From IMG/VR virus record IMGVR_UViG_3300042867_000770: 20,000 nucleotides of DNA; one strand, 5' to 3'. A program made the position numbers and the translations under genes. Of this stretch, positions 2,925-20,000 are shown piece after piece (the stretch's first letter is position 1; every line of letters starts with the position of its first letter). The DNA comes from an uncultured virus (IMG/VR IMGVR_UViG_3300042867_000770) (taxonomy: Duplodnaviria; Heunggongvirae; Uroviricota; Caudoviricetes). The notes beneath the pieces are model-generated. The model searched no databases. It was not told the DNA's origin and saw only the letters and a list, made by a program, of their open reading frames with translations.

Positions 2925-4277
2925 ATGTCAGATCTATTAAAACAAGCAATTGCCGACGCCAAAGCCGTTCGTGCCACTGCTCTATCAAACGCAAAAGCTG
3001 CTCTCGAAGAGCACTTTGCTCCGAAACTACAAAGCATGTTGTCTGAAAAGCTACGTGCCGAGATGGAAGGCGAAGAAGAAGTCGCACCAGCACCAGAAGC
3101 TCCAGCACCAGAAGCTCCAGCACCAGAAGCTGCATTGCCAACCGATGATATGGGTGGCGAAGAAATGGCTGCACCAGAAGCTCCATTGCCAATGGATGAT
3201 ATGGGTGGCGAAGCTGCTCCAGCACCAGAAGCTCCATTGCCAACCGATGATATGGGTGGCGAAGATGAGTTGTCTGAACTAAATATTGAAGATGACACTG
3301 GATATATGACCGAAGGTGAAAAAGCTTCTGGTGATTACAAAAAGACCACCAAGGGTCACAACACAGAAGATCCAGGTAAGAAGATGGTAAAGTCGGTTGG
3401 AGCCGCAATCGGCGGAACCAAAGGTTCTCTACCAGCCGCCAAGAAACACGCAAAAGCGTCGTCGGACTATACCAAGACCACAAATGGTCACAAGACTGAT
3501 GATCCACAAGGTCAAGGAAATGAAGTATCCAACGGCGGATATGACAATGACACAACAGCCTTGAAAGAAAACGAAGAAGTTGATGAAGCTTCTTTGGATG
3601 AAATCCTAAAAGAATTGGAAGACGGTCTGAATGACGTTGGTGGCATGGAAGATGTGGCAGCTGAAGAGGCTCCAGTTTCCGAAGCATCCGACGAAATAGT
3701 CGATCTTGATGAACTTCTATCTGAAACGGACGATAAAGACGCCGAAGAAGAAATTGAAGAAGGAAAGCTTCCAAAGGGTCTTGCTGATTACCAAGCCAAA
3801 AAAGCTGGTAAATCAAAAGACGACGACGATGAAGAAAAAGAAACCGTCAAAGAAAATATTTCGTTGAAGAAGGAACTAGCAGAATACCGTAGCGCAGTCG
3901 TTTATCTACGGGACCGCATCAATGAAGTTAACCTGCTCAATGCCAAGCTGTTGTATACGAACAAGTTGTTCAAACAAGCCAGCCTAAACAATGAGCAAAA
4001 ACTAAAAGTAATCGAGTCATTTGACCTCACGAAATCGGTTCGTGAAGCCAAACTTGTTTACGCTACGTTGGCCGAATCATTTAATTTCGGTGGAAAAAAG
4101 ACAGTTGTTGCAGCACCAGCCACTAAAAAGGTTGTTTCTCAAACTGTTAGATCCATCACCGAAGGACTCGCCTCCAAGCCAGTTGCATCAACAAGACCGA
4201 CAAAAGCCGCTGTTCTTACAGAAGGAGCCGAAATGGCAAACCGCTTTAAGAAATTGGCCGGTATTCGCAGTAAATAA
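2925..4277 (+). CDS. Prohead scaffolding/core protein
   Basis: 450-aa very acidic, low-complexity protein with helical N- and C-termini (coiled coil ending RFKKLAGI). It lies directly upstream of the major capsid gene and has many (I/L/M)-x-E sites of the kind cut by gp21. Confidence 0.82.
   Translation: MSDLLKQAIADAKAVRATALSNAKAALEEHFAPKLQSMLSEKLRAEMEGEEEVAPAPEAPAPEAPAPEAALPTDDMGGEEMAAPEAPLPMDDMGGEAAPAPEAPLPTDDMGGEDELSELNIEDDTGYMTEGEKASGDYKKTTKGHNTEDPGKKMVKSVGAAIGGTKGSLPAAKKHAKASSDYTKTTNGHKTDDPQGQGNEVSNGGYDNDTTALKENEEVDEASLDEILKELEDGLNDVGGMEDVAAEEAPVSEASDEIVDLDELLSETDDKDAEEEIEEGKLPKGLADYQAKKAGKSKDDDDEEKETVKENISLKKELAEYRSAVVYLRDRINEVNLLNAKLLYTNKLFKQASLNNEQKLKVIESFDLTKSVREAKLVYATLAESFNFGGKKTVVAAPATKKVVSQTVRSITEGLASKPVASTRPTKAAVLTEGAEMANRFKKLAGIRSK
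3084..3263 (+). repeat. Coding tandem repeats (APEAP)n and 3x APEA(A/P)LP(T/M)DDMGGE in the scaffold
   Basis: Repeated GCACCAGAAGCT and GATGATATGGGTGGCGAA units. Confidence 0.9.
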
Positions 4278-4317: not shown

Positions 4318-5928
4318 ATGTCAGACATCAAATCACTACTAAGCGAGACATCGAACCCAATGGTTCAACTAATGTCTCAAACCCGTGGTCTAATGACCAA
4401 ATGGGAAAAAACAGGGCTTCTAGAAGGCATCAAGACCGACATGGAAAAGTCACACATGTCTATCCTTTTGGAAAATCAAGCAAAGCAACTAATTGACGAA
4501 GCTACCCGCACAGGTACCTCCGCCAATTCCGAACAATGGGCGGGCGTTGCTCTACCACTGGTTCGTCGCGTTTTCGCTGAAATCGCAGCCAAGGAATTTG
4601 TATCGGTTCAACCGATGAATCTTCCTTCTGGTCTAGTATTCTATCTGGACTTCAAATATGGTTCCAACCAAGCCGGTAAACCAAGCTTCAGCGGACAATC
4701 GCTGTTCGGCGGTACAGGCACCAAGTTGGGTTCTACCGATAGCGCAACCAATGGTCTATATGGCCAAGGTCGTTTCGGTTATACCATGAATGACTCAACA
4801 ACGTCCCTAACCGGAACTGCTGCTACTGGTTCTTGGCTCGACGCAAAGTTCGTTCCAGAACTTTCCGCGTCTGTAGATGCTACCCAAATATTCCGCGTTA
4901 CCGCTGACTTGACAGGTACAGGCTATGATGCAACAGGCATCCGAGCTTTCACCGTTTCTGGTTCTGGAATCGTTGATTTCTATCCAGCATTCACCACTGT
5001 TGACACAGCCACTGACGTTGTAACATTCGTCGTATCTGGTTCCGCAATTGGAGCAACCCCAACCGTGCTTGTTGCTTATCATAAGCAACCAGAAGCCACC
5101 TCCCGTGGTGACTTTGAAGATCAAGGTGCTGGATTGCCAAACGCCACTGGCGTAGCAAACGACATTGGTATTCCAGAAGTCAATCTGGAACTGAAGAGCG
5201 AAGCCATTGTTGCCAAGACTCGTAAGTTGAAAGCCGTCTGGACACCAGAATTGGCTCAAGACTTGAATGCATATCACTCTATCGACGCAGAAGCCGAGCT
5301 AACCGCTCTTCTATCTGAATACGTTTCGATGGAAATTGATTTGGAAATCTTGGACATGTTGGTCACAGCTGCTCCAGCTGCCACAACTGAATTCTGGTCA
5401 GCTCGCGTTGGCGCTGAATACAATGCTACTCTTGGTAAGTTCCAAGACACAGCTGCTAACCGCACTGCATATGTCAAGAGCACATGGTTCCAAACCTTGG
5501 GCAACAAGATCCAAAAGGTCTCGAACAAGATTCACCAATTGACACTGCGCGGCGGTGCAAACTTCCTAGTTTGCTCACCAGACGTTGCTACAATCATTGA
5601 ATCCATTCCAGGCTTCAGTACCAACACGGACGGCGACCAAGCCAAGTTCGCAATGGGCGTTGCCAAAGTTGGCGCTCTGAGCAACCGTTGGACAGTATAC
5701 AAGAACCCATACATGACAGACAATGTTATGTTGGTAGGTTTCCGTGGAACAAACTTCCTAGAAACCGGCGCTGTTTACGCTCCATACATTCCACTGATTC
5801 AAACACCGTTGGTGTATGACCCAGTGAACTTTACTCCACGTCGTGGCGTAATGACACGTTATGCCAAGAAGATGCTCCGCCCGGAATTTTTTGGGAAAAT
5901 TGTTATCGGCAACTTGGACGAAGTATAA
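4318..5928 (+). CDS. gp23: Major capsid protein (T4 gp23-like)
   Basis: Motifs LLENQ, LPLVRR, VSVQPMNLPSGLVFYL, AKTRKLKAVWTPELAQDL.AYH.IDAEAEL, YAPYIPL, DP.NFTPRRGVMTRY are hallmarks of gp23. SD-like AGGA upstream. Confidence 0.97.
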   Translation: MSDIKSLLSETSNPMVQLMSQTRGLMTKWEKTGLLEGIKTDMEKSHMSILLENQAKQLIDEATRTGTSANSEQWAGVALPLVRRVFAEIAAKEFVSVQPMNLPSGLVFYLDFKYGSNQAGKPSFSGQSLFGGTGTKLGSTDSATNGLYGQGRFGYTMNDSTTSLTGTAATGSWLDAKFVPELSASVDATQIFRVTADLTGTGYDATGIRAFTVSGSGIVDFYPAFTTVDTATDVVTFVVSGSAIGATPTVLVAYHKQPEATSRGDFEDQGAGLPNATGVANDIGIPEVNLELKSEAIVAKTRKLKAVWTPELAQDLNAYHSIDAEAELTALLSEYVSMEIDLEILDMLVTAAPAATTEFWSARVGAEYNATLGKFQDTAANRTAYVKSTWFQTLGNKIQKVSNKIHQLTLRGGANFLVCSPDVATIIESIPGFSTNTDGDQAKFAMGVAKVGALSNRWTVYKNPYMTDNVMLVGFRGTNFLETGAVYAPYIPLIQTPLVYDPVNFTPRRGVMTRYAKKMLRPEFFGKIVIGNLDEV

Positions 5929-6051: not shown

Positions 6052-6798
6052 ATGGTAAAATCTGGAATATACAAAATAACAAATGAAATAACTGGAAAAT
6101 TTTATGTCGGATCTTCTATAGATATAGATCAGCGTTTTTTGGATCACAGGAGGGATTTAAACAATAAAACTCATGTAAATATAATATTACAACGCTCGTG
6201 GGAAAAGCATGGCGAAAAAGCATTTTCTATCGCAATATTAGAAGAATGTTCTCCGGAAAAGTGCTTTGAAAGAGAACAATATTATCTAGACACACTTCAA
6301 CCATATAAATCAATCGGGTATAATATTGGAAAACATGCCGGTGGGGGTGACAATTTTACACACAATCCAAACAAAGAATCTATGCGAGAAAAAAACAGAC
6401 TGATGTCGTCGGGAGAAAATAATGCAATGTTTGGAAAAAATCACACAGACGAATCAATAGAAAAACTTAAAAACAAAGCAAAAGGTCGTTTTTCTCTTGA
6501 ATGGTTTGTAGAACGAAATGGTCAAGAAATTGGTACTCAAAAATATCAAGAACGTCGTAAAATGCTATCATCTCGTAAAATCAATTATAGCCACGTAAAT
6601 AAAAATAAAGGAAAAAAGATCGTTGTAGAATCGACTAGAGGAGATAGTGTGAGCCGTGGAAGAAATGCACTAAAAGGTAGAAAAGAAGAATTTTTACTTG
6701 ATATATCTAATCAAGAATTGTCTAGTAAACAGATTGCTGACAAGTATGGAATATCAACTGCGGCAGTAAAGTATCACAGAAACAAGTTGAAAAAGTAA
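6052..6798 (+). CDS. Free-standing GIY-YIG homing endonuclease (Seg-like) with a NUMOD3-like motif and C-terminal HTH
   Basis: SGIYKITN...FYVGSS...R...H motif and REQYYLD...YN. NAMFGKNHTDESIEKL is NUMOD3-like. SSKQIADKYGISTAAVKYH is a helix-turn-helix. Confidence 0.92.
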   Translation: MVKSGIYKITNEITGKFYVGSSIDIDQRFLDHRRDLNNKTHVNIILQRSWEKHGEKAFSIAILEECSPEKCFEREQYYLDTLQPYKSIGYNIGKHAGGGDNFTHNPNKESMREKNRLMSSGENNAMFGKNHTDESIEKLKNKAKGRFSLEWFVERNGQEIGTQKYQERRKMLSSRKINYSHVNKNKGKKIVVESTRGDSVSRGRNALKGRKEEFLLDISNQELSSKQIADKYGISTAAVKYHRNKLKK

Positions 6799-8363: not shown

Positions 8364-9581
8364 ATGCCCGACACAAGTATAAATTACAATATTGATTCTG
8401 ACAGAGTACGCTGGCCTGGTTCTGGCTCCGCTATCACAACCGGAAGTACTCCATTTGGATTTTATGAAACCGACTCGCAATTCATATCAGAAGCACCAAA
8501 TGCTGCCAGATGGGCAGCAACTCGTTTGGGTTATCCCATTGTTGATATTGAAATGATAGACATAAATTTTTATGCATGTTTTGAAGAAGCTGTGAATGAA
8601 TATGGAGCACAAGTAAATCAATTTAATATTCGTAATAATATTGGTGTGCTACAAGGAACTTCCGCAAATGTAAATCTTACTCAAACAAATGTGGCTGGCA
8701 GTGGATTGCCACAACTCATAAAATTAGCTAATGGATATGGCACAGAGTTTGGTGTGGGTGGAAATGTGGATTGGAAAAAAGGTTATGTTGATGTTCAAAA
8801 AGGACAACAATCATATGATCTACAAGCATTGTGGGGAGATGTGAGTGAAAGTTTTGATAGAATTGAAATTCGCAGAATTTTTCATAACTCACCTCCAGCA
8901 TCCGCTCGTATATATGATCCATTTAGTATGACAGGTATGAGTTACAGCAATGTATTAAATGAAATGGGATTTGCTGGTTATTCTCCTGCTACTCAATTTT
9001 TGATGACACCAATATTTGAAGATTTGTTGCGTATGCAAGCAATTGAGTTCAATGATTTGGTTCGTAAATCTGGATATAGCTTTGAATTGGTTAATAATAA
9101 AGTAAAAATATTTCCAATTCCTACTTATGACTACAAGATGTATTTTGAGTATCTGCTTGTTAAAGACAGAGACAGTCAGGGCATTTATAATTCTGGTTCA
9201 TTTTATACAGCAAGCGGTTCGTATGTTTCTTCCAATACCATTGGAGATTATAGCAATGTTCCATACAATAATATTCCATACAGTGGCATCAATAGTGTTG
9301 GCAAGCAATGGATAAGAAAATACTTTTTAGCATTGTGCAAAGAACTATTGGGCAGTATTCGTCAAAAGTATCAAACGATTCCAATACCAGGTGCAGAAGT
9401 TACATTGGATGGTGCTGAACTGCGTCAAGAAGCATCTGCTGAAAAAACAGATTTGATTACACAGTTGAGAGAGAATTTAGAAGCAACTGGTCGCAAGGCT
9501 CAGATGGAAATGCGTGAAGCAGAAGCACAACAGATGTTATCCACTCTACAAAAAGTTCCGCTTGGAATTTATATTGGTTAA
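8364..9581 (+). CDS. Neck/head-tail adaptor protein (T4 gp13-like)
   Basis: RLGYPIVDIE near the N-terminus. WIRKYFLALCKELLG.IR.KY..IP.PG..VTLDG..L..EA..EK..L and a terminal P.GIYIG are typical of gp13-like proteins. Synteny fits. Confidence 0.85.
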   Translation: MPDTSINYNIDSDRVRWPGSGSAITTGSTPFGFYETDSQFISEAPNAARWAATRLGYPIVDIEMIDINFYACFEEAVNEYGAQVNQFNIRNNIGVLQGTSANVNLTQTNVAGSGLPQLIKLANGYGTEFGVGGNVDWKKGYVDVQKGQQSYDLQALWGDVSESFDRIEIRRIFHNSPPASARIYDPFSMTGMSYSNVLNEMGFAGYSPATQFLMTPIFEDLLRMQAIEFNDLVRKSGYSFELVNNKVKIFPIPTYDYKMYFEYLLVKDRDSQGIYNSGSFYTASGSYVSSNTIGDYSNVPYNNIPYSGINSVGKQWIRKYFLALCKELLGSIRQKYQTIPIPGAEVTLDGAELRQEASAEKTDLITQLRENLEATGRKAQMEMREAEAQQMLSTLQKVPLGIYIG

Positions 9582-9584
9582 AAA

Positions 9585-9992
9585 ATGAAACCTTTTTCTA
9601 TATTAGATATGATAATGTCCAAAGGTGAAAGACGACGACTAAAGTATGTTGGTGTGAAGAAAACTATGAAGCCGCCAACAAATTTTACTTCATTAGAAAT
9701 AAAGTATTATAATATGCTTGATGAAATTGGTGTGTATTTTATTCATCAATATCCAATGGGTGGTAGATTTTATGATGCATATCTGCCAGATGAAAATATT
9801 TTATTTGAATTTGATGGAGCATTTTGGCATCCAAAAACTGCTGAAGATGCAAAGTATATATTTCAAAAAAAGAGTATGAGAGTAGATGAGCTAAAAAATA
9901 AAATAGCTGCTGATAAAGGATACAAAATTATTCGCATACGCGAAGATGAACCAATCACATCAGAACAAATGAAAAAGTTGATATTTCCATAA
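9585..9992 (+). CDS. DUF559/Vsr-like PD-(D/E)xK endonuclease
   Basis: TSLE, QYP, YDAYLP..NILFEFDGAFWH, D..KN..A...GYKIIRIRE. Confidence 0.85.
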   Translation: MKPFSILDMIMSKGERRRLKYVGVKKTMKPPTNFTSLEIKYYNMLDEIGVYFIHQYPMGGRFYDAYLPDENILFEFDGAFWHPKTAEDAKYIFQKKSMRVDELKNKIAADKGYKIIRIREDEPITSEQMKKLIFP

Positions 9993-9998
9993 AAGTAT

Positions 9999-12749
9999 AT
10001 GCCAATAAAATATTTAAATAGAAGTAATATACCAACTGTTTTAGCAGGAACTCAAAAAGCAATATTTGGGTATGGAGCTACAAGTGTCGCTGTTTCAATG
10101 ACAAATCTTGTTAGTAACACGGGTGTAGTAGCAACAGACACGACGGGTGTTGGAACGGCAAGATATTCTCTAGCCGCAGCGGGTTATGGTACAGACAAAG
10201 CAATATTTGGATACGGATACTCAACCACATATGTTTCAATGACCAATCTTGTAAGTGATACAGGAGTTGTATCAACTGATACAGCCGGTATTGGTACGGC
10301 TAGATATGAATTAGCAGCAGCAGGTTATGGAGTGGGCAAAGCTATATTTGGATATGGAAGGACGGCTAGTGGTACAGCAACAACCAATCTGGTAAGTAAT
10401 ACAGGTGTTGTGGCGAGTAATACAACGGGTGTTGGCACAGCCAGATTTCAACTAGCAGCGGCGGGTTATGGAAATGACAAAGTTATATTTGGATATGGAA
10501 CCACGGGCACTGTTACGGCAGTAACCAATCTCGTAAGCAATGCGGGTGTAGTAGCAACAGACACGACGGGTGTTGGAACAGCAAGACAAGGTCCAGCAGC
10601 AGCCGGTTATGGTAGTGACAAAGCAATATTTGGGTATGGATATACCGCCGCTGCTTATGCGTCAATAACCAATCTTGTAAGTAATACAGGTGTAGTGGCA
10701 ACCGATACAACTGGCGTTGGCACAGCCAGATATATATTAGCCGCAGCAAGTTATGGATCAGATAAAGCTATATTTGGATATGGAGATAATGGTCCGGTTC
10801 TATCAATGACCAATCTGGTAAGCAACACTGGTGTTGTAGCAAATAACACAACGGGCGTGGGAACAGCAAGATATGGTCTAGCAGCGGCGGGATTTTCAAT
10901 AACTACAATACCAGCGCCCGGTGGAATAAAATATAAGAATATTAGTAATGTTCCAACTACACAAAAAGCTATATTTGGGTATGGGTATAGTGGCGGCAAT
11001 GTTTCAATGACCAACCTTGTTAGCAACAATGGTGTTGTAGCAAATGATACAACGGGTGTTGGTACTGCGAGATATCTACTAGCAGCGGCGGGGTATGGCA
11101 CCGACAAAGCTATATTTGGATATGGACAAAATGGTTCTGTCGTATTTTCAATGACAAATCTGGTTAGTAATACGGGCGTCGTAGCAAATGACACGACCGG
11201 CGTGGGTACAGCAAGAAATCAAATAGCGGCGGCTGGGTATGGTACTGACAAAGCAATTTTTGGATATGGAAACAACGCTGTGGTCGATCAGTCAGTGACC
11301 AACAAAGTAAGCAACACCGGCGTTGTAGCAACTGATACAGCGGGAGTTGGTACAGCAAGACCCGCTCTAGCAGCAGCTGGCTATGGAACCGATAAAGCTA
11401 TATTTGGTTATGGATATGTTACTTTATCAATGACCAATCTAGTAAGCAACACTGGTGTTGTATCAACAGACACAACAGGTGTTGGAACGGGTAGATCATA
11501 TCCATCGGCAGCGGGTTATGGGTCAGATAAAGCTATATTTGGATATGGATATAATGGCTCTGTCACATTTTCAATGACCAATCTTGTTAGTAATACAGGC
11601 GTTGTAGCAACCGATACAACTGGCGTTGGAACGGCGAGGAGTGGTTTGGCAGCAGCGGGCTATGGATCAGACAAAGCTATATTTGGATATGGACAAAATG
11701 GCGCAACTTACTACTCAATGACAAATCTTGTAAGCAACACAGGAGTTGTAGCAACAGATACAACGGGGGTTGGTACAGCAAGAGCCGCTCTAGCAGCAGC
11801 AAGTTATTCAAGTTCAATACCAGCACCAAGTGGATTAAAATTTAGAAAAGTATTTGCTGATCCTATTATTGTATCAGGAACACAAAAAGCTATATTTGGA
11901 TATGGAGATAATAGTTCCGTTTTAACTACAATCACAAATCTTGTAAGTAATACAGGTGTTGTAGCAGCTGACACAACGGGGGTTGGAACTGGGAGACGTG
12001 GTTTAGCAGCGGCTGGTTATGGAAGTGACAAAGCAATATTTGGATATGGATATAATGGCACTACACATTATTCAATGACAAATCTTGTTAGTAATACGGG
12101 TGTTGTAGCAACAGACACGACCGGTGTCGGTACGGCGAGACAAATTCTAGCAGCGGCGGGTTATGGAACAGACAAAGCACTGTTTGGATATGGTACGGTA
12201 GGTTTTACAACATTTTATTCAATAACTAATCTGGTAAGCAACACAGGTGTTGTATCAAATGACACAACGGGTGTTGGCACATCTAGATTTGGTCCAGCAG
12301 CTGCTAGTTATGGAACAGATAAAGCTATATTTGGATATGGATATAATGGTATAGGTTTATCAATGACCAATCTTGTAAGTAACACCGGTGTTGTATCAAA
12401 TGATACAGCGGGTGTTGGGACTGCAAGGTGGGTCTTGGCGGCGGCAGGTTATGGAACAGACAAAGCACTATTTGGATATGGATATAATGGTTCTGTCGGA
12501 GTATCAATGACCAATCTTGTAAGTAATACAGGTGTTGTAGCCACAGACACGACTGGTGTTGGTACTGGGAGAGATTCTCTTGCAGCGGCGGGTTATGGTA
12601 GTGATAAAGCAATATTTGGGTATGGATATACCACGGTTGCAGTTTCAATGACCAATCTTGTAAGTAATACTGGTGTTGCAGCAAATGACACAACCGGTGT
12701 TGGAACGGCAAGATTTGGTCTAGCAGCAGCAGGATACTCACTAACATAA
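9999..12749 (+). CDS. Triple six-bladed Kelch-like beta-propeller repeat protein, putative virion-associated adhesin
   Basis: 18 repeats of 45-49 aa (KAIFGYG-var-SMTNLVSNTGVVATDTTGVGTAR-var-LAAAGYG) in three blocks of six separated by 20-23-aa linkers. The fold and role are inferred. Confidence 0.8.
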   Translation: MPIKYLNRSNIPTVLAGTQKAIFGYGATSVAVSMTNLVSNTGVVATDTTGVGTARYSLAAAGYGTDKAIFGYGYSTTYVSMTNLVSDTGVVSTDTAGIGTARYELAAAGYGVGKAIFGYGRTASGTATTNLVSNTGVVASNTTGVGTARFQLAAAGYGNDKVIFGYGTTGTVTAVTNLVSNAGVVATDTTGVGTARQGPAAAGYGSDKAIFGYGYTAAAYASITNLVSNTGVVATDTTGVGTARYILAAASYGSDKAIFGYGDNGPVLSMTNLVSNTGVVANNTTGVGTARYGLAAAGFSITTIPAPGGIKYKNISNVPTTQKAIFGYGYSGGNVSMTNLVSNNGVVANDTTGVGTARYLLAAAGYGTDKAIFGYGQNGSVVFSMTNLVSNTGVVANDTTGVGTARNQIAAAGYGTDKAIFGYGNNAVVDQSVTNKVSNTGVVATDTAGVGTARPALAAAGYGTDKAIFGYGYVTLSMTNLVSNTGVVSTDTTGVGTGRSYPSAAGYGSDKAIFGYGYNGSVTFSMTNLVSNTGVVATDTTGVGTARSGLAAAGYGSDKAIFGYGQNGATYYSMTNLVSNTGVVATDTTGVGTARAALAAASYSSSIPAPSGLKFRKVFADPIIVSGTQKAIFGYGDNSSVLTTITNLVSNTGVVAADTTGVGTGRRGLAAAGYGSDKAIFGYGYNGTTHYSMTNLVSNTGVVATDTTGVGTARQILAAAGYGTDKALFGYGTVGFTTFYSITNLVSNTGVVSNDTTGVGTSRFGPAAASYGTDKAIFGYGYNGIGLSMTNLVSNTGVVSNDTAGVGTARWVLAAAGYGTDKALFGYGYNGSVGVSMTNLVSNTGVVATDTTGVGTGRDSLAAAGYGSDKAIFGYGYTTVAVSMTNLVSNTGVAANDTTGVGTARFGLAAAGYSLT
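10050..12740 (+). repeat. 18 coding repeats of ~141-144 bp in three modules: 10050-10898, 10959-11810, 11880-12740
   Basis: Counted directly from the translation and DNA. Confidence 0.95.
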
Positions 12750-12757
12750 AAATTTAT

Positions 12758-13225
12758 ATGAAAGGAAGATATTTTAGCACACGCGACTTAAACTTAATCA
12801 ATTCTCTTAATGGTGAATTGATGGGAAATATTATTGAAAATCTTATTCAAATATTTAAAATTTGTCCAAATGAAACCAAAACAAATATATATGGTGAAAC
12901 TTCATCAGAAACTGGTAAATGGTATTTTCCAGCAGTTCAAATATCTGCACTTATTGAAAGAGCTGAAATGACGGCAGAATTTGACGATTTCGGACCAAAT
13001 AGAAATCAAGATCATATTTTCAAGATGCGTGAAAAAATGTTAAAGCAATTAGAATTTTATCCAGAAATTGGCGATGTAGTATCTTGGAATGATAGATATT
13101 ATGAAATTGATAATGTAATACAAGAACAGCTACTTGGAGGTCAAAGCGACAAGAGTCATAGTATAGTTTGTAATAGTCATTATACCAAATATACATCACT
13201 CAATATAATGGAAAGAAATCAATAA
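12758..13225 (+). CDS. Neck/head-closure protein (T4 gp14-like)
   Basis: NIYGE, F.DFG, PEIGDVV.WN..YYEI..V. Its position between gp13-like and gp15-like genes fits. Confidence 0.75.
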   Translation: MKGRYFSTRDLNLINSLNGELMGNIIENLIQIFKICPNETKTNIYGETSSETGKWYFPAVQISALIERAEMTAEFDDFGPNRNQDHIFKMREKMLKQLEFYPEIGDVVSWNDRYYEIDNVIQEQLLGGQSDKSHSIVCNSHYTKYTSLNIMERNQ

Positions 13226-13229
13226 TTTT

Positions 13230-14546
13230 ATGGCATGGCGTGGACCAACAACTAAACCAGTGGCAAATAAACCACCACATAATCCAATAAATCATGGACA
13301 TGAAATGGCTGAATCTAAAAAGCCAGTAGTAGAGGCTGCTTATGGTCCAAATCACAAGCCAAATAGAGCATATGATTTACGCAGAGACACAGATACTCAA
13401 AAGAATTTTTCAGTTACACTCATTGATATTGATACTGCTATTTTAACACATCTTGATACTGTTATATCTCCTACAATAATAGATGCTGGTCGTCAAATAA
13501 AAGTGCCAATAAATTATGCTTCACCAGAAAAATGGAAATCTATTCAACAAGATGGTGTGATCAGAGATCATAATGGTAAAATACAAACACCAGTTATTGC
13601 TTTTCGCAGAAGCACCATGCAACGCAATGATAATTTAATTACACTCAATCGTTACTTACAATATCCAGCAGTAAAACATTTTTCTGAAAAGAATAAATAT
13701 GATAGATTTTCTGCCATGTCTGGATTTATGCCTGTGAAAGAAATTTATAGTGTAGCAATGCCAGATCATGTTATTATTAACTATGAATTTATTATATGGA
13801 CAGAACTGATTGAACAAGGCAATGCTGTTGTAGAAGCAATAAATTTTGCTACAGAAGATTATTGGGGTGATAAAAATAGATTCAAATTTAGAACAAGTAT
13901 CAGCGATTATAATTTTGAAACAACAAATGATGCTGGTCAAGATCGTATTGTACGCAGCACATTTAGCATGATGGTAAATGCTTATCTATTACCAGATAAA
14001 TTTGAAAATTATAAATCAGTTGTTCAAAAAGCATTTACACCAAGAAAAGTTGTATTTGATGTTCATGAAAAAATTGTTGGTACAATTGGACAATCTGGAG
14101 AACGTACATCTGTGTCTGTTAATGATGGAAACTTGGCTGATTCAAATCAACCACCAATTTCTCAAAATATAAATTATAATATCGTAAATCAAAACAGTAC
14201 ATTGGAAGTGTTGAATATTGTTGGTGGAGGGGATGGTGGAGCTACTGGATCATTCACCGCAAACTCTGTAACAATTTCTGGTTCTGCTGATATAGATTCT
14301 CAATTGATTGGCGATGGAAATGCAGCAAGATGGTTGGTTTCTATTTCTAATGGATCTGACATCAAAGTTAATGAAGTTATGTCAAGTTGGAACAATGTGT
14401 CTTCCAGTTTTTATGTAACAGAAGTAAGTCAAATTGGATATGTGCCAGTATCATTGTCTGTAAATAATGTGGGTGGTAGCATACACTTGTTGGCTACTCC
14501 TTTATCTGGAACATGGACACTTAAATATATAAAGATGGTTGTATGA
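13230..14546 (+). CDS. Tail terminator/sheath stabiliser (T4 gp15-like) with an extra C-terminal beta domain
   Basis: KVPINYASPEKW, KIQTPVIAFRR, PDHVIINYEFIIWT...Q.N..VE.I and F...AYL are gp15-like. About 160 extra residues follow PRKVVF. Confidence 0.78.
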   Translation: MAWRGPTTKPVANKPPHNPINHGHEMAESKKPVVEAAYGPNHKPNRAYDLRRDTDTQKNFSVTLIDIDTAILTHLDTVISPTIIDAGRQIKVPINYASPEKWKSIQQDGVIRDHNGKIQTPVIAFRRSTMQRNDNLITLNRYLQYPAVKHFSEKNKYDRFSAMSGFMPVKEIYSVAMPDHVIINYEFIIWTELIEQGNAVVEAINFATEDYWGDKNRFKFRTSISDYNFETTNDAGQDRIVRSTFSMMVNAYLLPDKFENYKSVVQKAFTPRKVVFDVHEKIVGTIGQSGERTSVSVNDGNLADSNQPPISQNINYNIVNQNSTLEVLNIVGGGDGGATGSFTANSVTISGSADIDSQLIGDGNAARWLVSISNGSDIKVNEVMSSWNNVSSSFYVTEVSQIGYVPVSLSVNNVGGSIHLLATPLSGTWTLKYIKMVV

Positions 14547-16957
14547 TTCAAAACGCATTTATAGCTTCAAATGGCTTGATTGTAAATGGAAATGCCGAAA
14601 TTAACGGAGATTTGACCGTGAGCGGCTTTGCATATGCTTCATCAAGTTATGCTATCACAGCAAGTTATGCTTTGAGTTATAGTGGAACAAGTGGAACAAG
14701 TGGTGCCAACGGAAGTAGTGGTGCCAGTGGAACAGACGGCAGCAGTGGAACCAGCGGAGCCAACGGAAGTAGTGGTGCCAGTGGAACAGACGGCAGCAGT
14801 GGAACCAGCGGAGCCAACGGAAGTAGTGGTGCCAGTGGAACAGACGGCAGCAGTGGCACAAGCGGAGCCAACGGAAGTAGTGGTGCCAGTGGAACAGACG
14901 GCAGCAGTGGAACCAGCGGAGCCAACGGAAGTAGTGGTGCCAGTGGAACAGACGGCAGCAGTGGAACCAGCGGCAGCAGTGGAAACACCGGAGCCAGCGG
15001 CAGCAGTGGCACAAGCGGCAGCAGTGGAAACACCGGAGCCAGCGGCAGCAGTGGCACAAGCGGCAGCAGTGGAAACACCGGAGCCAGCGGCAGCAGTGGC
15101 ACAAGCGGCAGCAGTGGAACCAGCGGAGCTGGCACCATTTCTGGCGGAACATCTAATTATGTTGCAAGATTTACCGGTGCAACAACATTAACTACCGGTT
15201 CAATATTTGACAATGCAACAAATGTTGGCATTGGAAAAGCAAATCCAAACGCAAAACTTGATGTATACGGTGATACAATAATTACAGGTAGTTTATCAGT
15301 GACTGGGAACATTACTAATATAGGTAATGTCAGTGCAAACAGCATAACGGTTGCTGGGCAACCAACAACTTATGGTACAGTAAATCCTGATTATATTAAC
15401 GCAGGTAGAATAACTTCCGACCAAACCGGTGCAGGTTCAGGTAGTGATATTATATTTAATTATGCACCTGTAAGTAGTGGTATATCTCTTAACACATCAA
15501 CGGGTGTATTCACATTAACCGCAGGTAAAACATACAGTTTATTTGCAGAATTAAGTTTCAGCAATTTTAGTGATACAGCAAATGGTTATGAAATATACGA
15601 TTGGGTAGATGCAACAACAAATACTAGATTAGTCACAACTGGTATAGGTGCTGGTATAGGTGAGAATATCAATAGAAATACAAATGAATTTAATGCAACA
15701 TCTACTACTTTAATTTATACCCCAACTACAAACCAAACTGTAAAAGTTCGTATTGTAGAGGCGGCGGGAACAGTAACTGTCAGAGCAGGTATTGGAACAA
15801 AAGCAATTATTCAACAAATAAATCCCACCATAGCTATTCAAGCAACTGCTACTGGTACGGTTAGCACGAACTATGCAAAATACACAAGGTCTGCACAACA
15901 AACTGGGTTATCAAATGGATCTGTTGTTGTTTGCAATGTGATAGAAAATGCAGGTGGATCGGCAATATCAGTCAATACAGGAAGTGGTCAAGTTACATTG
16001 TCCGCTGGTAAAACTTATAGATTAAAAGGAATGATTCCCGGTTTCACTACTAGCGGTGCGAACGTAAGACCACAGTTCTGTTGGTATAATGAAACTACAT
16101 TAACATATATAGGTTCGTCTGCCGAATCATACAGTCCGAGCGATGCTGCTGGATACGGAGCATTTGGAGGCACAGCTGAAGCAATTATTACCACAGCCGC
16201 AACAACCGTGACATCGTTTAGATTATTAGCAGGTGCGACCAATTTAGCAGGTATAGGCGGTAATGCCGATTTTTCTACTACCGGAAGTTATCCGTGGATT
16301 GACATACAAGAAATAGGATCAATCTTTGCTCTAAATGCATTGGACACAATGACCCTAACAGGCGCTGTTTCAGCCAGCGGTAATGTAACCGGACAAAACT
16401 TAATATCATCAAACGCAAGTGGTAATGAAGGTGGAGAAATACAACTTGCTAAATCTCCAAATAGTACCTTATCTGGAAGTAATGTTGTCATTGATCAATA
16501 CATTGATAGAATTAGATTTTTTGAAAGCGGCGGTAGCTCAAGAGGTGCATATATTGATCTATCAACAGCACCGTCGGGGGTAGGTTTTTTAATTAATAAT
16601 AGAGCAAGTGGTATTGTTGATGCCGGTACAGATGTTACATTAGGAAATTTGAAAGTAAGATTATCAACATCGGGAAATAGAAGTTTGCAAGTATCAACTG
16701 TTTCAGGAACATATTCAGTTTATGGCAGTAGTGTATATAGTACGGGAGGTCCAGGCGGTACATCAATAACAGACAATGCGCCATTAACAATTACAACCAC
16801 ACCCACATATATTAATGCGGGATATAGTTTTGGGCTAGGAGGATATACTGATACTTGGTTGCTTATGTCCACGGCCAGTAACATTGCTTGGAGAATAACA
16901 TTGATAGTTGGTAGTAGTTACAACAACAATATGATATGTATTGAAAGATTGGTATAA
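14543..16957 (+). CDS. Fibre/appendage protein: Gly-X-Y tract, NVGIG..P..KLDV motif, two tandem C1q/BclA-like domains
   Basis: GTS/GAN/GSS/GTD triplets at 14684-15130. NVGIGKANPNAKLDVYG near 15221. Duplicated GIS.NT.TG.FTL.AGKTY.L motif. ATGA overlap with the upstream gene. Confidence 0.8.
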   Translation: MIQNAFIASNGLIVNGNAEINGDLTVSGFAYASSSYAITASYALSYSGTSGTSGANGSSGASGTDGSSGTSGANGSSGASGTDGSSGTSGANGSSGASGTDGSSGTSGANGSSGASGTDGSSGTSGANGSSGASGTDGSSGTSGSSGNTGASGSSGTSGSSGNTGASGSSGTSGSSGNTGASGSSGTSGSSGTSGAGTISGGTSNYVARFTGATTLTTGSIFDNATNVGIGKANPNAKLDVYGDTIITGSLSVTGNITNIGNVSANSITVAGQPTTYGTVNPDYINAGRITSDQTGAGSGSDIIFNYAPVSSGISLNTSTGVFTLTAGKTYSLFAELSFSNFSDTANGYEIYDWVDATTNTRLVTTGIGAGIGENINRNTNEFNATSTTLIYTPTTNQTVKVRIVEAAGTVTVRAGIGTKAIIQQINPTIAIQATATGTVSTNYAKYTRSAQQTGLSNGSVVVCNVIENAGGSAISVNTGSGQVTLSAGKTYRLKGMIPGFTTSGANVRPQFCWYNETTLTYIGSSAESYSPSDAAGYGAFGGTAEAIITTAATTVTSFRLLAGATNLAGIGGNADFSTTGSYPWIDIQEIGSIFALNALDTMTLTGAVSASGNVTGQNLISSNASGNEGGEIQLAKSPNSTLSGSNVVIDQYIDRIRFFESGGSSRGAYIDLSTAPSGVGFLINNRASGIVDAGTDVTLGNLKVRLSTSGNRSLQVSTVSGTYSVYGSSVYSTGGPGGTSITDNAPLTITTTPTYINAGYSFGLGGYTDTWLLMSTASNIAWRITLIVGSSYNNNMICIERLV
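14702..15106 (+). repeat. Near-perfect tandem repeats: 54 bp x5 (14702-14971) then 45 bp x3 (14972-15106)
   Basis: The units encode GANGSSGASGTDGSSGTS and GSSGNTGASGSSGTS. Confidence 0.93.
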
Positions 16958-17830: not shown

Positions 17831-20000
17831 ATGAGTCTAGACCCAAAAACCATTTACAATGTTCAGAGATCATCAGACGGTGCTGCATGGGAAGAAATAT
17901 ACATAAGCGGCAGCAACTTGGTATTACACACAAATGAAAATGGTGTATTAACGGGTTCTTCAGTATTGCCTGCTGCTATTACAGCAAGTTATGCTTTGAC
18001 TGCATCATATGTGATTGGCGGTGGTGGAACCAATGGCAGCAGCGGCACCAGTGGAGAATCTGGATCAAGTGGAACAGACGGCAATAGTGGAACCAGTGGA
18101 ACCAGTGGAGTCAACGGCAGCAGCGGCACAGATGGCGCAAGTGGAAGCAGTGGAAGCAGCGGAACCAGTGGAGCCAACGGCAGCAGCGGAACTAGCGGCA
18201 GCAGCGGTTCAAGTGGAAGCAGCGGCAGCAGCGGCAGCAGCGGTTCAAGTGGAAGCAGCGGCAGCAGCGGCAGCAGCGGCACAGGTGGTTCAAGTGGAAG
18301 CAGTGGAGCTGATGGTACTGATGGAGCAAGTTTTGATTGGGAGGGTGGGTGGTTAAGTATTTCTACATATCTAAAAAATGATGTTGTTTTTTACGAAGGA
18401 AGTTCTTGGATAGCTTTAGATAATATTTCAAGTGGTGGACAATCACCACCACTAGCAACAGGTTCATGGTCTATCATGACCGCAGCTGGTACTTCTGGCA
18501 CAGCAGGTAGTAGTGGTTCTAGTGGCACAAGTGGACAAAATGGATCTAGTGGCACTTCTGGTTCTAATGGTACAAGTGGTACTGATGGCACAAGTGGTTC
18601 AAGTGGATCTACCGGCACAAGTGGCTCGTCAGGCTCTACAGGAACAAGTGGTTCAAGCGGAACAGACGGTTCGTCTGGCACAAGCGGTTCAAATGGCTCA
18701 AGTGGCTCAAGTGGCTCGTCAGGCACAAGCGGCACTGATGGCACAAGTGGAACTTCTGGCACAGACGGTACGAGTGGTTCGTCAGGCACTGATGGTACAA
18801 GTGGAACTTCTGGCACAGACGGCACAAGTGGTTCGTCTGGCACAAGTGGCACAGACGGTACTTCTGGTACTGATGGAACAAGTGGCTCGTCAGGCACAAG
18901 CGGCACTGATGGTACAAGTGGAACTTCTGGCACAGACGGCACGAGTGGTTCGTCTGGCACAAGTGGCACAGACGGTACAAGCGGTTCTAGTGGAACCAGT
19001 GGCACGGATGGTACCAGTGGAACTTCTGGCACAGACGGCACGAGTGGTTCGTCAGGCACTGATGGTACCAGTGGAACTTCTGGCACAGACGGCACGAGTG
19101 GTTCGTCAGGCACAAGTGGCACAGACGGTACAAGTGGTTCTAGTGGAACCAGTGGCACGGATGGTACAAGCGGTTCTAGTGGAACAAGCGGAACAGACGG
19201 CTCTAGCGGTACAAGCGGCACAGATGGTACAAGTGGTACAAGTGGTACAGACGGTTCGTCTGGCACAAGTGGCACGGATGGTACAAGCGGTTCTTCTGGT
19301 ACAGACGGCTCTAGCGGTACGAGCGGCACAGATGGCACAAGTGGTTCATCTGGCACAGACGGCTCGTCTGGCACAAGTGGCACAGACGGGTCGAGTGGCA
19401 CAAGTGGTACTGATGGTACGAGTGGTTCTTCGGGAACTGATGGTTCAAGTGGCACAAGCGGAACAGATGGCACAAGTGGAACAAGTGGATCATCTGGCAC
19501 AGACGGTTCAAGTGGAACGAGTGGTACGGACGGTTCAAGTGGAACGAGTGGTACGGACGGTTCAAGTGGAACAAGCGGAACAGATGGTTCAAGTGGAACA
19601 AGCGGAACAGATGGCACAAGTGGATCTTCTGGCACAGACGGCTCATCTGGTACGAGCGGTACAGACGGTTCAAGCGGCACAAGCGGAACTGATGGTTCAA
19701 GTGGAACAAGTGGTACGGATGGTTCTAGCGGTACAAGTGGCACAGACGGATCAAGCGGCACAAGCGGAACAGATGGTTCGTCTGGTACAAGTGGTACGGA
19801 TGGTTCTAGCGGTACAAGTGGTACGGATGGTTCTAGCGGTACGAGCGGAACAGATGGCACAAGTGGATCATCTGGCACAGACGGTTCGTCTGGTACGAGC
19901 GGTACTGATGGTACGAGTGGATCATCTGGCACAGATGGCACAAGTGGTACAAGTGGTACAAGTGGTACAGACGGTTCGTCTGGCACAAGTGGCACGGATG
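17831..20000 (+). CDS. Large Gly-X-Y (collagen-like/polyglycine) fibre protein with an embedded CBM5/12-like module, 3'-truncated
   Basis: Translated by hand from the ATG at 17831: MSLDPKTIYNVQRSSDGAAWEEIYISGSNL...ITASYALTASYVIGGGGTNGSSGTSG.... No stop was seen to the window end, which explains its absence from the ORF track. The module FDWEGGW....TYLKNDVVFYEGSSWIA...P....GSW lies at 18332-18469. Confidence 0.9.
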   Translation, partial: MSLDPKTIYNVQRSSDGAAWEEIYISGSNLVLHTNENGVLTGSSVLPAAITASYALTASYVIGGGGTNGSSGTSGESGSSGTDGNSGTSGTSGVNGSSGTDGASGSSGSSGTSGANGSSGTSGSSGSSGSSGSSGSSGSSGSSGSSGSSGTGGSSGSSGADGTDGASFDWEGGWLSISTYLKNDVVFYEGSSWIALDNISSGGQSPPLATGSWSIMTAAGTSGTAGSSGSSGTSGQNGSSGTSGSNGTSGTDGTSGSSGSTGTSGSSGSTGTSGSSGTDGSSGTSGSNGSSGSSGSSGTSGTDGTSGTSGTDGTSGSSGTDGTSGTSGTDGTSGSSGTSGTDGTSGTDGTSGSSGTSGTDGTSGTSGTDGTSGSSGTSGTDGTSGSSGTSGTDGTSGTSGTDGTSGSSGTDGTSGTSGTDGTSGSSGTSGTDGTSGSSGTSGTDGTSGSSGTSGTDGSSGTSGTDGTSGTSGTDGSSGTSGTDGTSGSSGTDGSSGTSGTDGTSGSSGTDGSSGTSGTDGSSGTSGTDGTSGSSGTDGSSGTSGTDGTSGTSGSSGTDGSSGTSGTDGSSGTSGTDGSSGTSGTDGSSGTSGTDGTSGSSGTDGSSGTSGTDGSSGTSGTDGSSGTSGTDGSSGTSGTDGSSGTSGTDGSSGTSGTDGSSGTSGTDGSSGTSGTDGTSGSSGTDGSSGTSGTDGTSGSSGTDGTSGTSGTSGTDGSSGTSGTD
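18488..20000 (+). repeat. Long 9-bp-period coding repeat (GTS/GTD/GSS triplets, about 168 triplets in the window)
   Basis: GGN-ACN-AGY / GGN-ACN-GAY / GGN-TCN-TCN(AGY) units with mixed synonymous codons. Confidence 0.95.

Follow-up and report, generated by a model that had tools for sequence, protein, structure and literature searches.

The stretch of DNA analysed here (the window) comprises 20 kb of a 21,940-base IMG/VR virus record (IMGVR_UViG_3300042867_000770), and the Pfam and PHROG matches of its genes identify it as the structural module of a T4-like myovirus. Co-oriented within this module lies a plus-strand gene (9999..12749, stop codon included; from the open reading frame (ORF) list and its translation) for a 916-aa protein made of three repeat-built propellers in tandem. 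The gene fills a slot that holds different proteins in related phages. Our reading, which we give an even chance of being right, is that its product is a multivalent binding protein displayed on the virion of an uncultured, T4-like freshwater myovirus, and that this protein changes by module exchange.

The motif K[AV][IL]FGYG occurs 18 times in the protein at a spacing of 45-49 aa, and two longer gaps (67 and 71 aa) divide the array of 18 blades into 6+6+6; in the gene, Tandem Repeats Finder detects repeats with periods of 141/144 nt and 423/426 nt. All parts lie on the plus strand. The N-terminal tag MPIKYLNRSNIPTVLAGTQ (9999..10055), a putative virion-docking peptide common to the slot proteins of the clade, precedes propeller 1 (blades 1-6, aa 20-302, 10056..10904), which is the part covered by our AlphaFold2 model. 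Linker 1, TIPAPGGIKYKNISNVPTTQ (aa 303-322, 10905..10964), reads as an internal copy of the tag and leads into propeller 2 (blades 7-12, aa 323-606, 10965..11816), which is 72% identical to propeller 1 and has its best outside relative in P0084 (78% identity). Linker 2, IPAPSGLKFRKVFADPIIVSGTQ (aa 607-629, 11817..11885), reads as a second internal tag copy and is followed by propeller 3 (blades 13-18, aa 630-916, 11886..12746), with 89% amino acid and 91.4% nucleotide identity to the C-terminal propeller of a relative, P0040. Because the linkers are copies of the tag, the protein can be read as three single-propeller genes, each with its tag, fused in frame. Distant phages (L006-L012) carry three separate genes of ~306 aa in tandem.

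Aligned over 49 columns, the 18 blades agree fully at 17 columns and have an entropy below 1 bit at most of the others. Variation is focused at two sites: columns 8-10 and 12-15 (1.8-3.2 bits), which form a length-variable loop after FGYG (loop 1), and columns 39-40 (2.9-3.0 bits), the two residues after an invariant Arg. A hidden Markov model of the 18 blades retrieved 1,653 blades (1,543 unique) from 256 related proteins, and in the unique blades both hot spots recur, with 2.8-3.7 bits in columns 8-13 and 3.6-3.7 bits in columns 37-38. The near-fixed framework with two variable sites, as proposed in an earlier sequence-only reading of this DNA, therefore holds both in the protein and across its relatives. 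Two details of that proposal needed correction. Loop 1 does vary in residues and length but is not unconstrained, since a Y-N-G start is preferred (Y first in 9/18 blades, N second in 9/18, G third in 10/18), and the second site, given as two to three residues long, spans only two, the third residue being L in 14 of the 18 blades. Among the 152 variable residues, 19% are Y/F/W, 52% are G/S/T/N/A and 4.6% are D/E/K/R.

To describe the fold, we modelled aa 1-306 with AlphaFold2 from an alignment of 58 sequences (35-72% identity) taken from 1.84 billion cluster representatives. The model is a closed six-bladed Kelch-type propeller with a predicted local distance difference test score (pLDDT) of 95.4 and a predicted template modelling score of 0.91; by part, pLDDT is 60 for residues 1-10, 81 for residues 11-20 and 96-98 for the propeller blocks. 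Of the three closed propellers that had been predicted, one is thus supported directly by the model, and the other two are expected to match it from their 70-72% identity. DSSP assigns to each repeat the strands AAAGY, KAIFG and MTNLV and an irregular fourth; the chain begins at strand 2 and ends with strand 1, and the C-terminal strand appears to close blade 1. Since loop 1 is the strand 2-3 loop and the R-x-x segment is the end of the 4-1 loop in an up-down meander, both should lie on the same face, and the strand topology and DSSP string agree with the co-location that the sequence-only reading had assumed.

The fold search with VIA-align against 48,161 PDB representatives returned KLHL17 at Z 33.4 (root-mean-square deviation (rmsd) 2.5 A, 279 residues), KLHL12 at 33.0 and Keap1 at 32.6; with Plasmodium K13 included, these Kelch domains span Z 31.4-33.4 at an rmsd of 2.4-2.6 A over 272-279 residues. 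Further Kelch proteins scored Z 19-26 and generic six-bladed lectins and sialidases Z ~17. Foldseek gave E 5.7e-15 to KLHL12 and template modelling (TM) scores of 0.74-0.79 to Kelch domains. The Kelch signature consists of four hydrophobic residues and a double Gly, followed by a spaced Tyr and Trp. Kelch-like elements are visible in the blades as AIFGYG (a hydrophobic run plus G-x-G) and a conserved Tyr in AAAGYG; a conserved Trp is absent from all 18 blades of the 49-column alignment. The 916-aa protein had no Pfam or PHROG match, and the Pfam scan, Kelch models included, was empty even at E<=10. Some related clusters of the ESM-Atlas have Kelch_1 on 18% of their members or Kelch_KLHDC2_KLHL20_DRC7 on 22%.

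The only solved structures reached by sequence were Photorhabdus bangle lectins of the PLL/PHL type: phmmer gave E 1e-7 for PHL, 1.7e-4 for PLL2 and 1.5e-3 for PLL3. In the ESM-Atlas, the cluster nearest to the protein bears the name 'PLL-like beta propeller', with PF26607 (Beta-prop_PLL, Pfam 38.1) in 30% of its members, and PF26607 is precomputed on 3 of the 120 relatives listed. According to the available excerpts of the PHL study (PMC5584973), the galactose site 2G of PHL is made of Arg91, Glu93, Gln155, Ser160, Gly161 and Trp163, with Trp107 stacking. Carried over by the phmmer alignment, Arg91 falls on the conserved R and Glu93 on R+2; Gln155, Ser160 and Gly161 fall in loop 1; Trp163 falls on the M/I/V position just past loop 1 and Trp107 on the final G of FGYG. 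Thr194 and Val172 of the fucose site map to the GTD and TGV turns on the opposite face. As far as this weak sequence link can carry, both variable sites would fall at galactose-pocket positions of PHL, and the mapping therefore suggests up to six between-blade pockets on the loop face of each propeller.

The gene stands between conserved neighbours on the same strand. Upstream lie a gp13-like head completion/adaptor neck gene (8364..9581; phrog_211 'head-tail adaptor Ad2', E 7.5e-12), whose product is 37.8% identical to a 'putative head completion protein' of Flavobacterium phage immuto and 47.3% identical to an ORF of Microcystis phage Mel-JY01, and, directly 5' of the slot, orf9585 (9585..9992), which encodes a small endonuclease-like protein of 135 aa (phrog_559 'HNH endonuclease', E 7.1e-13; phrog_3339 'homing endonuclease'). 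Downstream, the slot is bounded by orf12758 (12758..13225), a conserved 155-aa gene with 76-100% identity in 20 clade loci, and beyond it lies a gp15-like gene (13230..14546) with a weak match to PF16724 T4-gp15_tss (E 3e-4, 20.5 bits, under the 25-bit cut-off). Across nine clade loci, these four genes are conserved at 58-100% aa, and the slot between orf9585 and orf12758 holds six architectures, all beginning with MPIKYLNR-like tags. By type, the contents are three propellers, LamG with two propellers, LamG with one propeller, or two genes. Three fused propellers are found in the window phage and a sister phage (L004/L005/L029); other slots hold an 831-aa two-propeller protein, a 764-aa one-propeller protein, a 554-aa protein, or two 654-aa genes with a 211-aa ORF. 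In this last arrangement (L049, 5038-9670, and L097), the 654-aa genes are both tagged and have one and two propellers, and the 211-aa ORF is blade-free. The slot protein of L048 (5968-7632) opens with two successive tag copies (MSIKYLNISN...LKFANRSN) before its propeller, and the sister phage has ~1.5 kb extra (L005, 9239-10777) between its homologues of orf12758 and the gp15-like gene, which are adjacent in the window.

What the slot displays is a conserved anchor tag with an exchangeable distal part, encoded in the virion structural module. In the cultured relatives Mel-JY01 and immuto, the gp13-like gene and the orf12758 homologue are neighbours and a slot gene is absent (in Mel-JY01 the two are 20 nt apart). 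We considered orf12758 as a propeller-specific partner and ruled this out, as it is conserved in the clade and also present in these propeller-free relatives. A tag-like start motif is found in 30 of 257 family proteins, the query included. The N-terminal tags in P0002-P0257 fall into types, among them MPLTIK (15), MPFTRL (14), MPIKYL (11), MPIKLK (8) and MPTLGK (7), which may mark different docking sites or phage clades. The nuclease gene orf9585 is present directly 5' of the variable slot in 22/22 related loci at 66-100% identity, and this free-standing nuclease beside an exchange hot spot might promote exchange.

Comparison with the sister phage set the propeller gene apart from its surroundings: the flanks are 89-99% identical at the amino acid level, with a synonymous divergence (dS) of 0.14-0.47, whereas the propeller gene is 72% identical. 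Within the gene, the tag and linkers (dS 0.23) resemble the flanking genes, the blade frame has a dS of 0.77, and the loops are 16-17% identical with a ratio of non-synonymous to synonymous change (omega) of 0.9-2.3. Blades at the same position share 0.817 of their nucleotides vs 0.806 off the diagonal, and the same-position blade is the best match in only 3/18 cases; by this measure, positional blade orthology is erased.

A second comparison concerns propeller 3 and P0040, a 772-aa LamG-LamG-propeller protein encoded on a 6-kb contig (L145) that shares nothing else with the window. Here the frame has a dS of 0.255 and an omega of 0.17, and outside blade 17 the loops have the same proportion of non-synonymous differences (pN 0.04) as the frame; it follows that loops are replaced rather than fast-mutating. 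In blade 17, 8/10 codons of loop 1 differ from P0040 and the neighbours are near-identical. The window version of this loop resembles window blade 11 (48/54 nt), and the P0040 version resembles blade 1 of P0040 (48/54). Differences between the two propellers are clustered (dispersion 1.44 vs 0.75 permuted, p 0.0002), as are the synonymous differences taken alone (1.46 vs 0.85, p 0.004). Along propeller 3 the nearest blades alternate between P0040 and P0051 and are colinear save for blade 17. An 18-nt exact stretch was considered as a donor trace and rejected, being too short to count and also present in two other blades. These data point to recombination via the conserved frame, on the scale of propellers and probably also of blades. 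The shuffling that the sequence-only reading had imagined between blades is borne out for whole propellers, which move between genes (P0040, sister phage), and is only probable for single blades.

That reading had further pictured an antibody-like diversifying system, and had suggested looking for polymorphic loops, an excess of loop change and, in the genome, a reverse transcriptase (RT), paralogues or silent donors. The data do not support such a system at work. Words from positions 9000-13500 recur nearly unchanged (87-97% of sampled words) in 20/24 public runs listed; all 20 are labelled as lake water metagenomes, and three of these runs may be the source of the record. The propeller gene has 0 nucleotide differences in two further assemblies (L002 and L003), and contig pieces from 4/4 lake runs (2020-2024), spanning 10127-10572, 10550-11132, 11105-11553, 11672-12336 and 12320-12746, show 0 other letters among the pieces listed. 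The few variants listed within the gene all come from one chimeric 231-nt record, and low-depth bins in single runs (e.g. 10359-10509 in X18) are uninformative either way. Contig joints and loose ends were considered as blade swaps in the population and set aside; with their short sides or inserted letters, we read them as cross-mapping of family members. Between blades, four-fold sites in identical frame codons differ at 0.49 vs 0.66 at saturation, which marks the blades, on sequence grounds, as old duplicates.

Nor did a diversifying mechanism come to light. No RVT_1 match over cut-off was found in four records (G000, 21.9 kb; G001, 63 kb; G002, 91 kb; G003, 137 kb; ~313 kb in all), which are 11-40% complete by CheckV, so that an RT elsewhere in the genome is possible, and the 63-kb record of the window phage contains no further propeller or donor copies. 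The 78 substitutions relative to P0040 cover all 12 types, with 16/78 starting from A; the pattern is not adenine-specific. In this closest pair, the equal pN of loops and frame outside blade 17 leaves no excess of loop change.

The propeller is a member of a large family of phage propellers that has yet to be characterised by experiment. At E<=0.001 we counted 521 relatives among 8,000 candidates scored and 695 cluster representatives (50% identity) in an exhaustive search of 1.84 billion representatives; 448 stretches of the family were confirmed in IMG/VR. When the 916-aa protein was searched by tblastn against 50,697 phage records, no match came up at E<=1e-5, with a low-complexity filter on that may mask repeats, and our literature search found no publication on this propeller family. 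Among 67 multi-domain relatives, 18 carry Laminin_G_3, 6 fn3 and 5 SBBP, and 33 have no recognised partner; single cases carry collagen, cadherin, RCC1, Mtd_N (P0140), Phage_min_tail or PTR. Judged by domain composition, this is the make-up of fibre-borne binding heads. The binding role on the virion that had been suggested earlier is, by gene context and the partner domains of relatives, the best reading of the protein.

The remainder of the window fits the same structural module. It opens with a gp21-type prohead protease gene (2-406, Pfam/PHROG scan). A 450-aa ORF of raised GC content (0.46) without a Pfam or PHROG match (2925-4277) lies just 5' of the gp23-type capsid gene (4318-5928; PF07068, E 1e-76), whose product is 56.6% identical to that of Mel-JY01 and 54.8% identical to that of immuto. 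The capsid gene and the nuclease gene are separated by a GIY-YIG/NUMOD3 homing endonuclease gene (6052-6798), which lacks conservation in the sister phage and has just a 25% partial match elsewhere; the capsid-to-nuclease distance differs by ~0.8 kb between window and sister phage. The homing endonuclease gene is likely a mobile insertion. Pfam and PHROG matches also identify a non-specific nuclease and a lysozyme-like gene. Downstream of the gp15-like gene lies a collagen-like fibre gene (14543-16957; Pfam/PHROG), in which one 54-nt repeat unit (around 14803) separates the window record from L003, an assembly that is otherwise identical; this is copy-number variation of the G-X-Y repeat, and outside this unit the 6 kb downstream are 99.9% identical between the two. 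A second collagen-like gene (17831-20000) runs past the window end, with a 9-nt period in ~95 copies, G-X-Y triplets and a GC content of 0.53-0.55 vs 0.32-0.46 in other parts of the window.

We propose the following working model. A short N-terminal docking tag would be followed by three Kelch-type six-bladed propellers on the virion, each blade combining a fixed four-strand frame with two variable segments, the loop linking strands 2 and 3 and the residue pair that follows the conserved Arg where the 4-1 loop ends. Most likely, these variable segments and the neighbouring blade would line up to six shallow pockets per propeller, or 18 per protein, and the pockets would probably take sugars of the host envelope, by analogy with the galactose ring of PHL. 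Specificity would shift without programmed mutation, as propellers, and probably single blades, are swapped by homologous recombination; the near-invariant frame DNA would offer the recombination route within a very large pool of related phage genes, and new gene versions would be kept stable after exchange. A bolder version of this model seems doubtful to us: that the six sugar pockets of each propeller all differ and form a ring with homology to the PHL galactose ring, giving 18 distinct pockets, with the frame DNA as a universal recombination handle for trading single 47-aa blades as well as propellers, in a retroelement-free cassette system whose logic would be nearer to the assembly of lamprey variable lymphocyte receptors than to antibodies or diversity-generating retroelements (DGRs).

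Several observations weigh against the model. The PLL link is weak: single repeats have independent E-values of 0.012-2.9, a profile of 58 diverse family members reaches no PLL chain at E<=1, and a PLL-family chain is absent among the best 50 fold-search entries listed. PLL lectins are seven-bladed and family modules have about six blades (5-7 FGYG-type motifs per module in the query and the 120 relatives examined, six blades in the model), and the fucose-site tryptophans of PHL (W104, W107, W115, W118) align with F, G, T and L here. The sugar ligand and the between-blade pockets are both extrapolated from this link, as the particle location is from gene context and partner domains. On the structural side, the model covers propeller 1 alone, and the fold of propellers 2 and 3 is deduced from their identity to it; the placement of both variable segments on one face follows from strand topology and the DSSP string, not measured coordinates, and a first AlphaFold2 model from a shallow alignment (58 sequences, ~70% identical) reached a pLDDT of 48.7 and served for a provisional fold search only before it was replaced. 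For the exchange, single-blade swapping probably occurs but has one clear case, blade 17, and we found no exact donor blade for any cluster of differences between propeller 3 and P0040. Finally, the stability comparison used contigs, which drop rare variants, so low-frequency loop variants could go unseen.

The structural matches themselves suggest another kind of binding. In Kelch domains, the BC and DA loops make a single central ligand-binding site on one face, and these are the loops that vary here. Each propeller might then bind a protein or peptide on its central top face, as in Keap1 and the KLHL proteins, with one site per propeller and no between-blade sugar pockets; candidate targets would be an outer-membrane protein, a pilus or flagellin of the host. 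That the top structural matches are peptide-binding Kelch domains (Z 32.6-33.4, Foldseek E ~1e-14) favours this view, yet identity to them is 12-16%, no Pfam Kelch model matches at E<=10, lectins are the only solved structures linked to the protein by sequence, and the commonest fusion partner has a ConA-like lectin fold (18/67). The variable residues are also charge-poor (4.6% D/E/K/R) and rich in Y/F/W and small polar residues, and few charges with many aromatic and small polar residues suit sugar contacts. We regard central-face binding as unlikely on balance. We judge similarly improbable a dispensable neck or head decoration, like T4 Hoc or whiskers, that provides weak, broad adherence to particles, mucus or cell surfaces and does not set host range. 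Its position among neck genes and away from baseplate genes would suit such a role, many weak sites on three propellers fit avidity-based adherence, and the cultured relatives without the gene show that it is not essential to the particle. Against this stand the strong turnover of the slot despite 89-99% identical flanks, a pattern that is usual for host-range determinants, and the tail-fibre anchors (Mtd_N, Phage_min_tail) and collagen stalks of relatives.

Two further explanations would place the protein in quite different settings. Active antibody-like diversification, in which a dedicated process rewrites the loops at a high rate through a retroelement or programmed gene conversion from silent donors, would account for the focus of variation on two short segments in a near-invariant frame, for the loop omega of 0.9-2.3 against the sister phage, and for the clustered differences to P0040 with the blade 17 loop replaced and its neighbours kept. 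It is nevertheless very improbable given the identical gene in two assemblies and in the contig pieces listed from 4/4 runs, the 49% four-fold-site difference between blades, closest-pair loops that outside blade 17 match the frame in pN (0.04), the 16/78 substitutions from A, the lack of extra propeller copies in the 63-kb record and of RVT_1 matches over cut-off in the ~313 kb, whose records are 11-40% complete. An intracellular host-takeover factor outside the particle, acting as a Kelch substrate adaptor in the manner of poxvirus BTB-Kelch proteins, has hardly any probability in our view. The Kelch fold is the best structural match, and in the accessible text of PMC5259590 the Kelch proteins of eukaryotic viruses act within cells; the Pfam scan, however, found no BTB or other adaptor domain, the gene is co-oriented in a structural module, collagen, LamG, fn3 and tail-anchor domains occur as fusion partners in relatives, and a phage Kelch protein, CBB_552, was detected in the virion (same source). 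A multi-site, lectin-like binder evolving by cassette exchange is therefore the best reading, in which virion location and ligand are the parts we infer.

Set beside known systems, the window protein shares with the Kelch domains of KLHL17 (6hrl), KLHL12 (2vpj) and Keap1 (6fmp) and with the designed SAKe6 the six four-stranded blades (Z 32.6-33.4, rmsd 2.4-2.5 A) and, with Kelch domains, the hydrophobic strand followed by a Gly-x-Gly turn; it differs in its 12-16% identity, its lack of BTB/BACK, its far more uniform blades, and in being a viral, presumably extracellular tandem of three propellers. With the PLL lectins (PHL 5mxe, PLL2 6rfz, PLL3 6t96) it has in common a 47-48 aa repeat and the aligned motifs GTDxA-h-aromatic, NGV-h and G/A-R-x-x-h. 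The binding sites of those lectins lie between blades, in rings, but they are soluble bacterial proteins with seven blades, unlike the six-bladed phage propellers here. The jumbo phage vB_PcaM_CBB encodes Kelch-type propellers, CBB_550/552/554, of which mass spectrometry detected CBB_552 in mature particles, as reported in the available sections of PMC5259590. These too are phage-encoded six-bladed Kelch-type propellers, and by the same sections they match InterPro Kelch signatures, whereas the window protein matches none.

A further parallel is found in the cassette-type receptor-binding proteins of tailed phages, which also join a conserved N-terminal tag to swapped distal modules in one slot. 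Here, by contrast, propellers in tandem form the head in place of a tailspike or trimeric fibre tip, the slot is part of the neck module, and exchange seems to reach single 47-aa blades. DGR targets such as Mtd of Bordetella phage similarly focus variation on a ligand-binding surface, and one relative of our protein (P0140) carries an Mtd_N anchor; the window protein has a propeller and not a C-type lectin fold, no RT or template repeat was found in the searched records, and no adenine pattern is seen.

What the window contributes to this picture is the triple fusion, a neck-module slot with a shared tag, module exchange across architectures, and variable sites that would match the galactose pocket of bangle lectins. 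Among the undescribed modules of freshwater phage particles, the propeller appears to be one of the more common. If the pocket model is true, the variable sites would amount to a readable code for the host glycans recognised by uncultured lake phages, and the propeller would offer a scaffold that is both compact and very stable, with up to six sites to programme in every 300 residues. The way in which modules are exchanged suggests that host range can shift by trading ready ones, which bears on the prediction of phage-host pairs from metagenomes.

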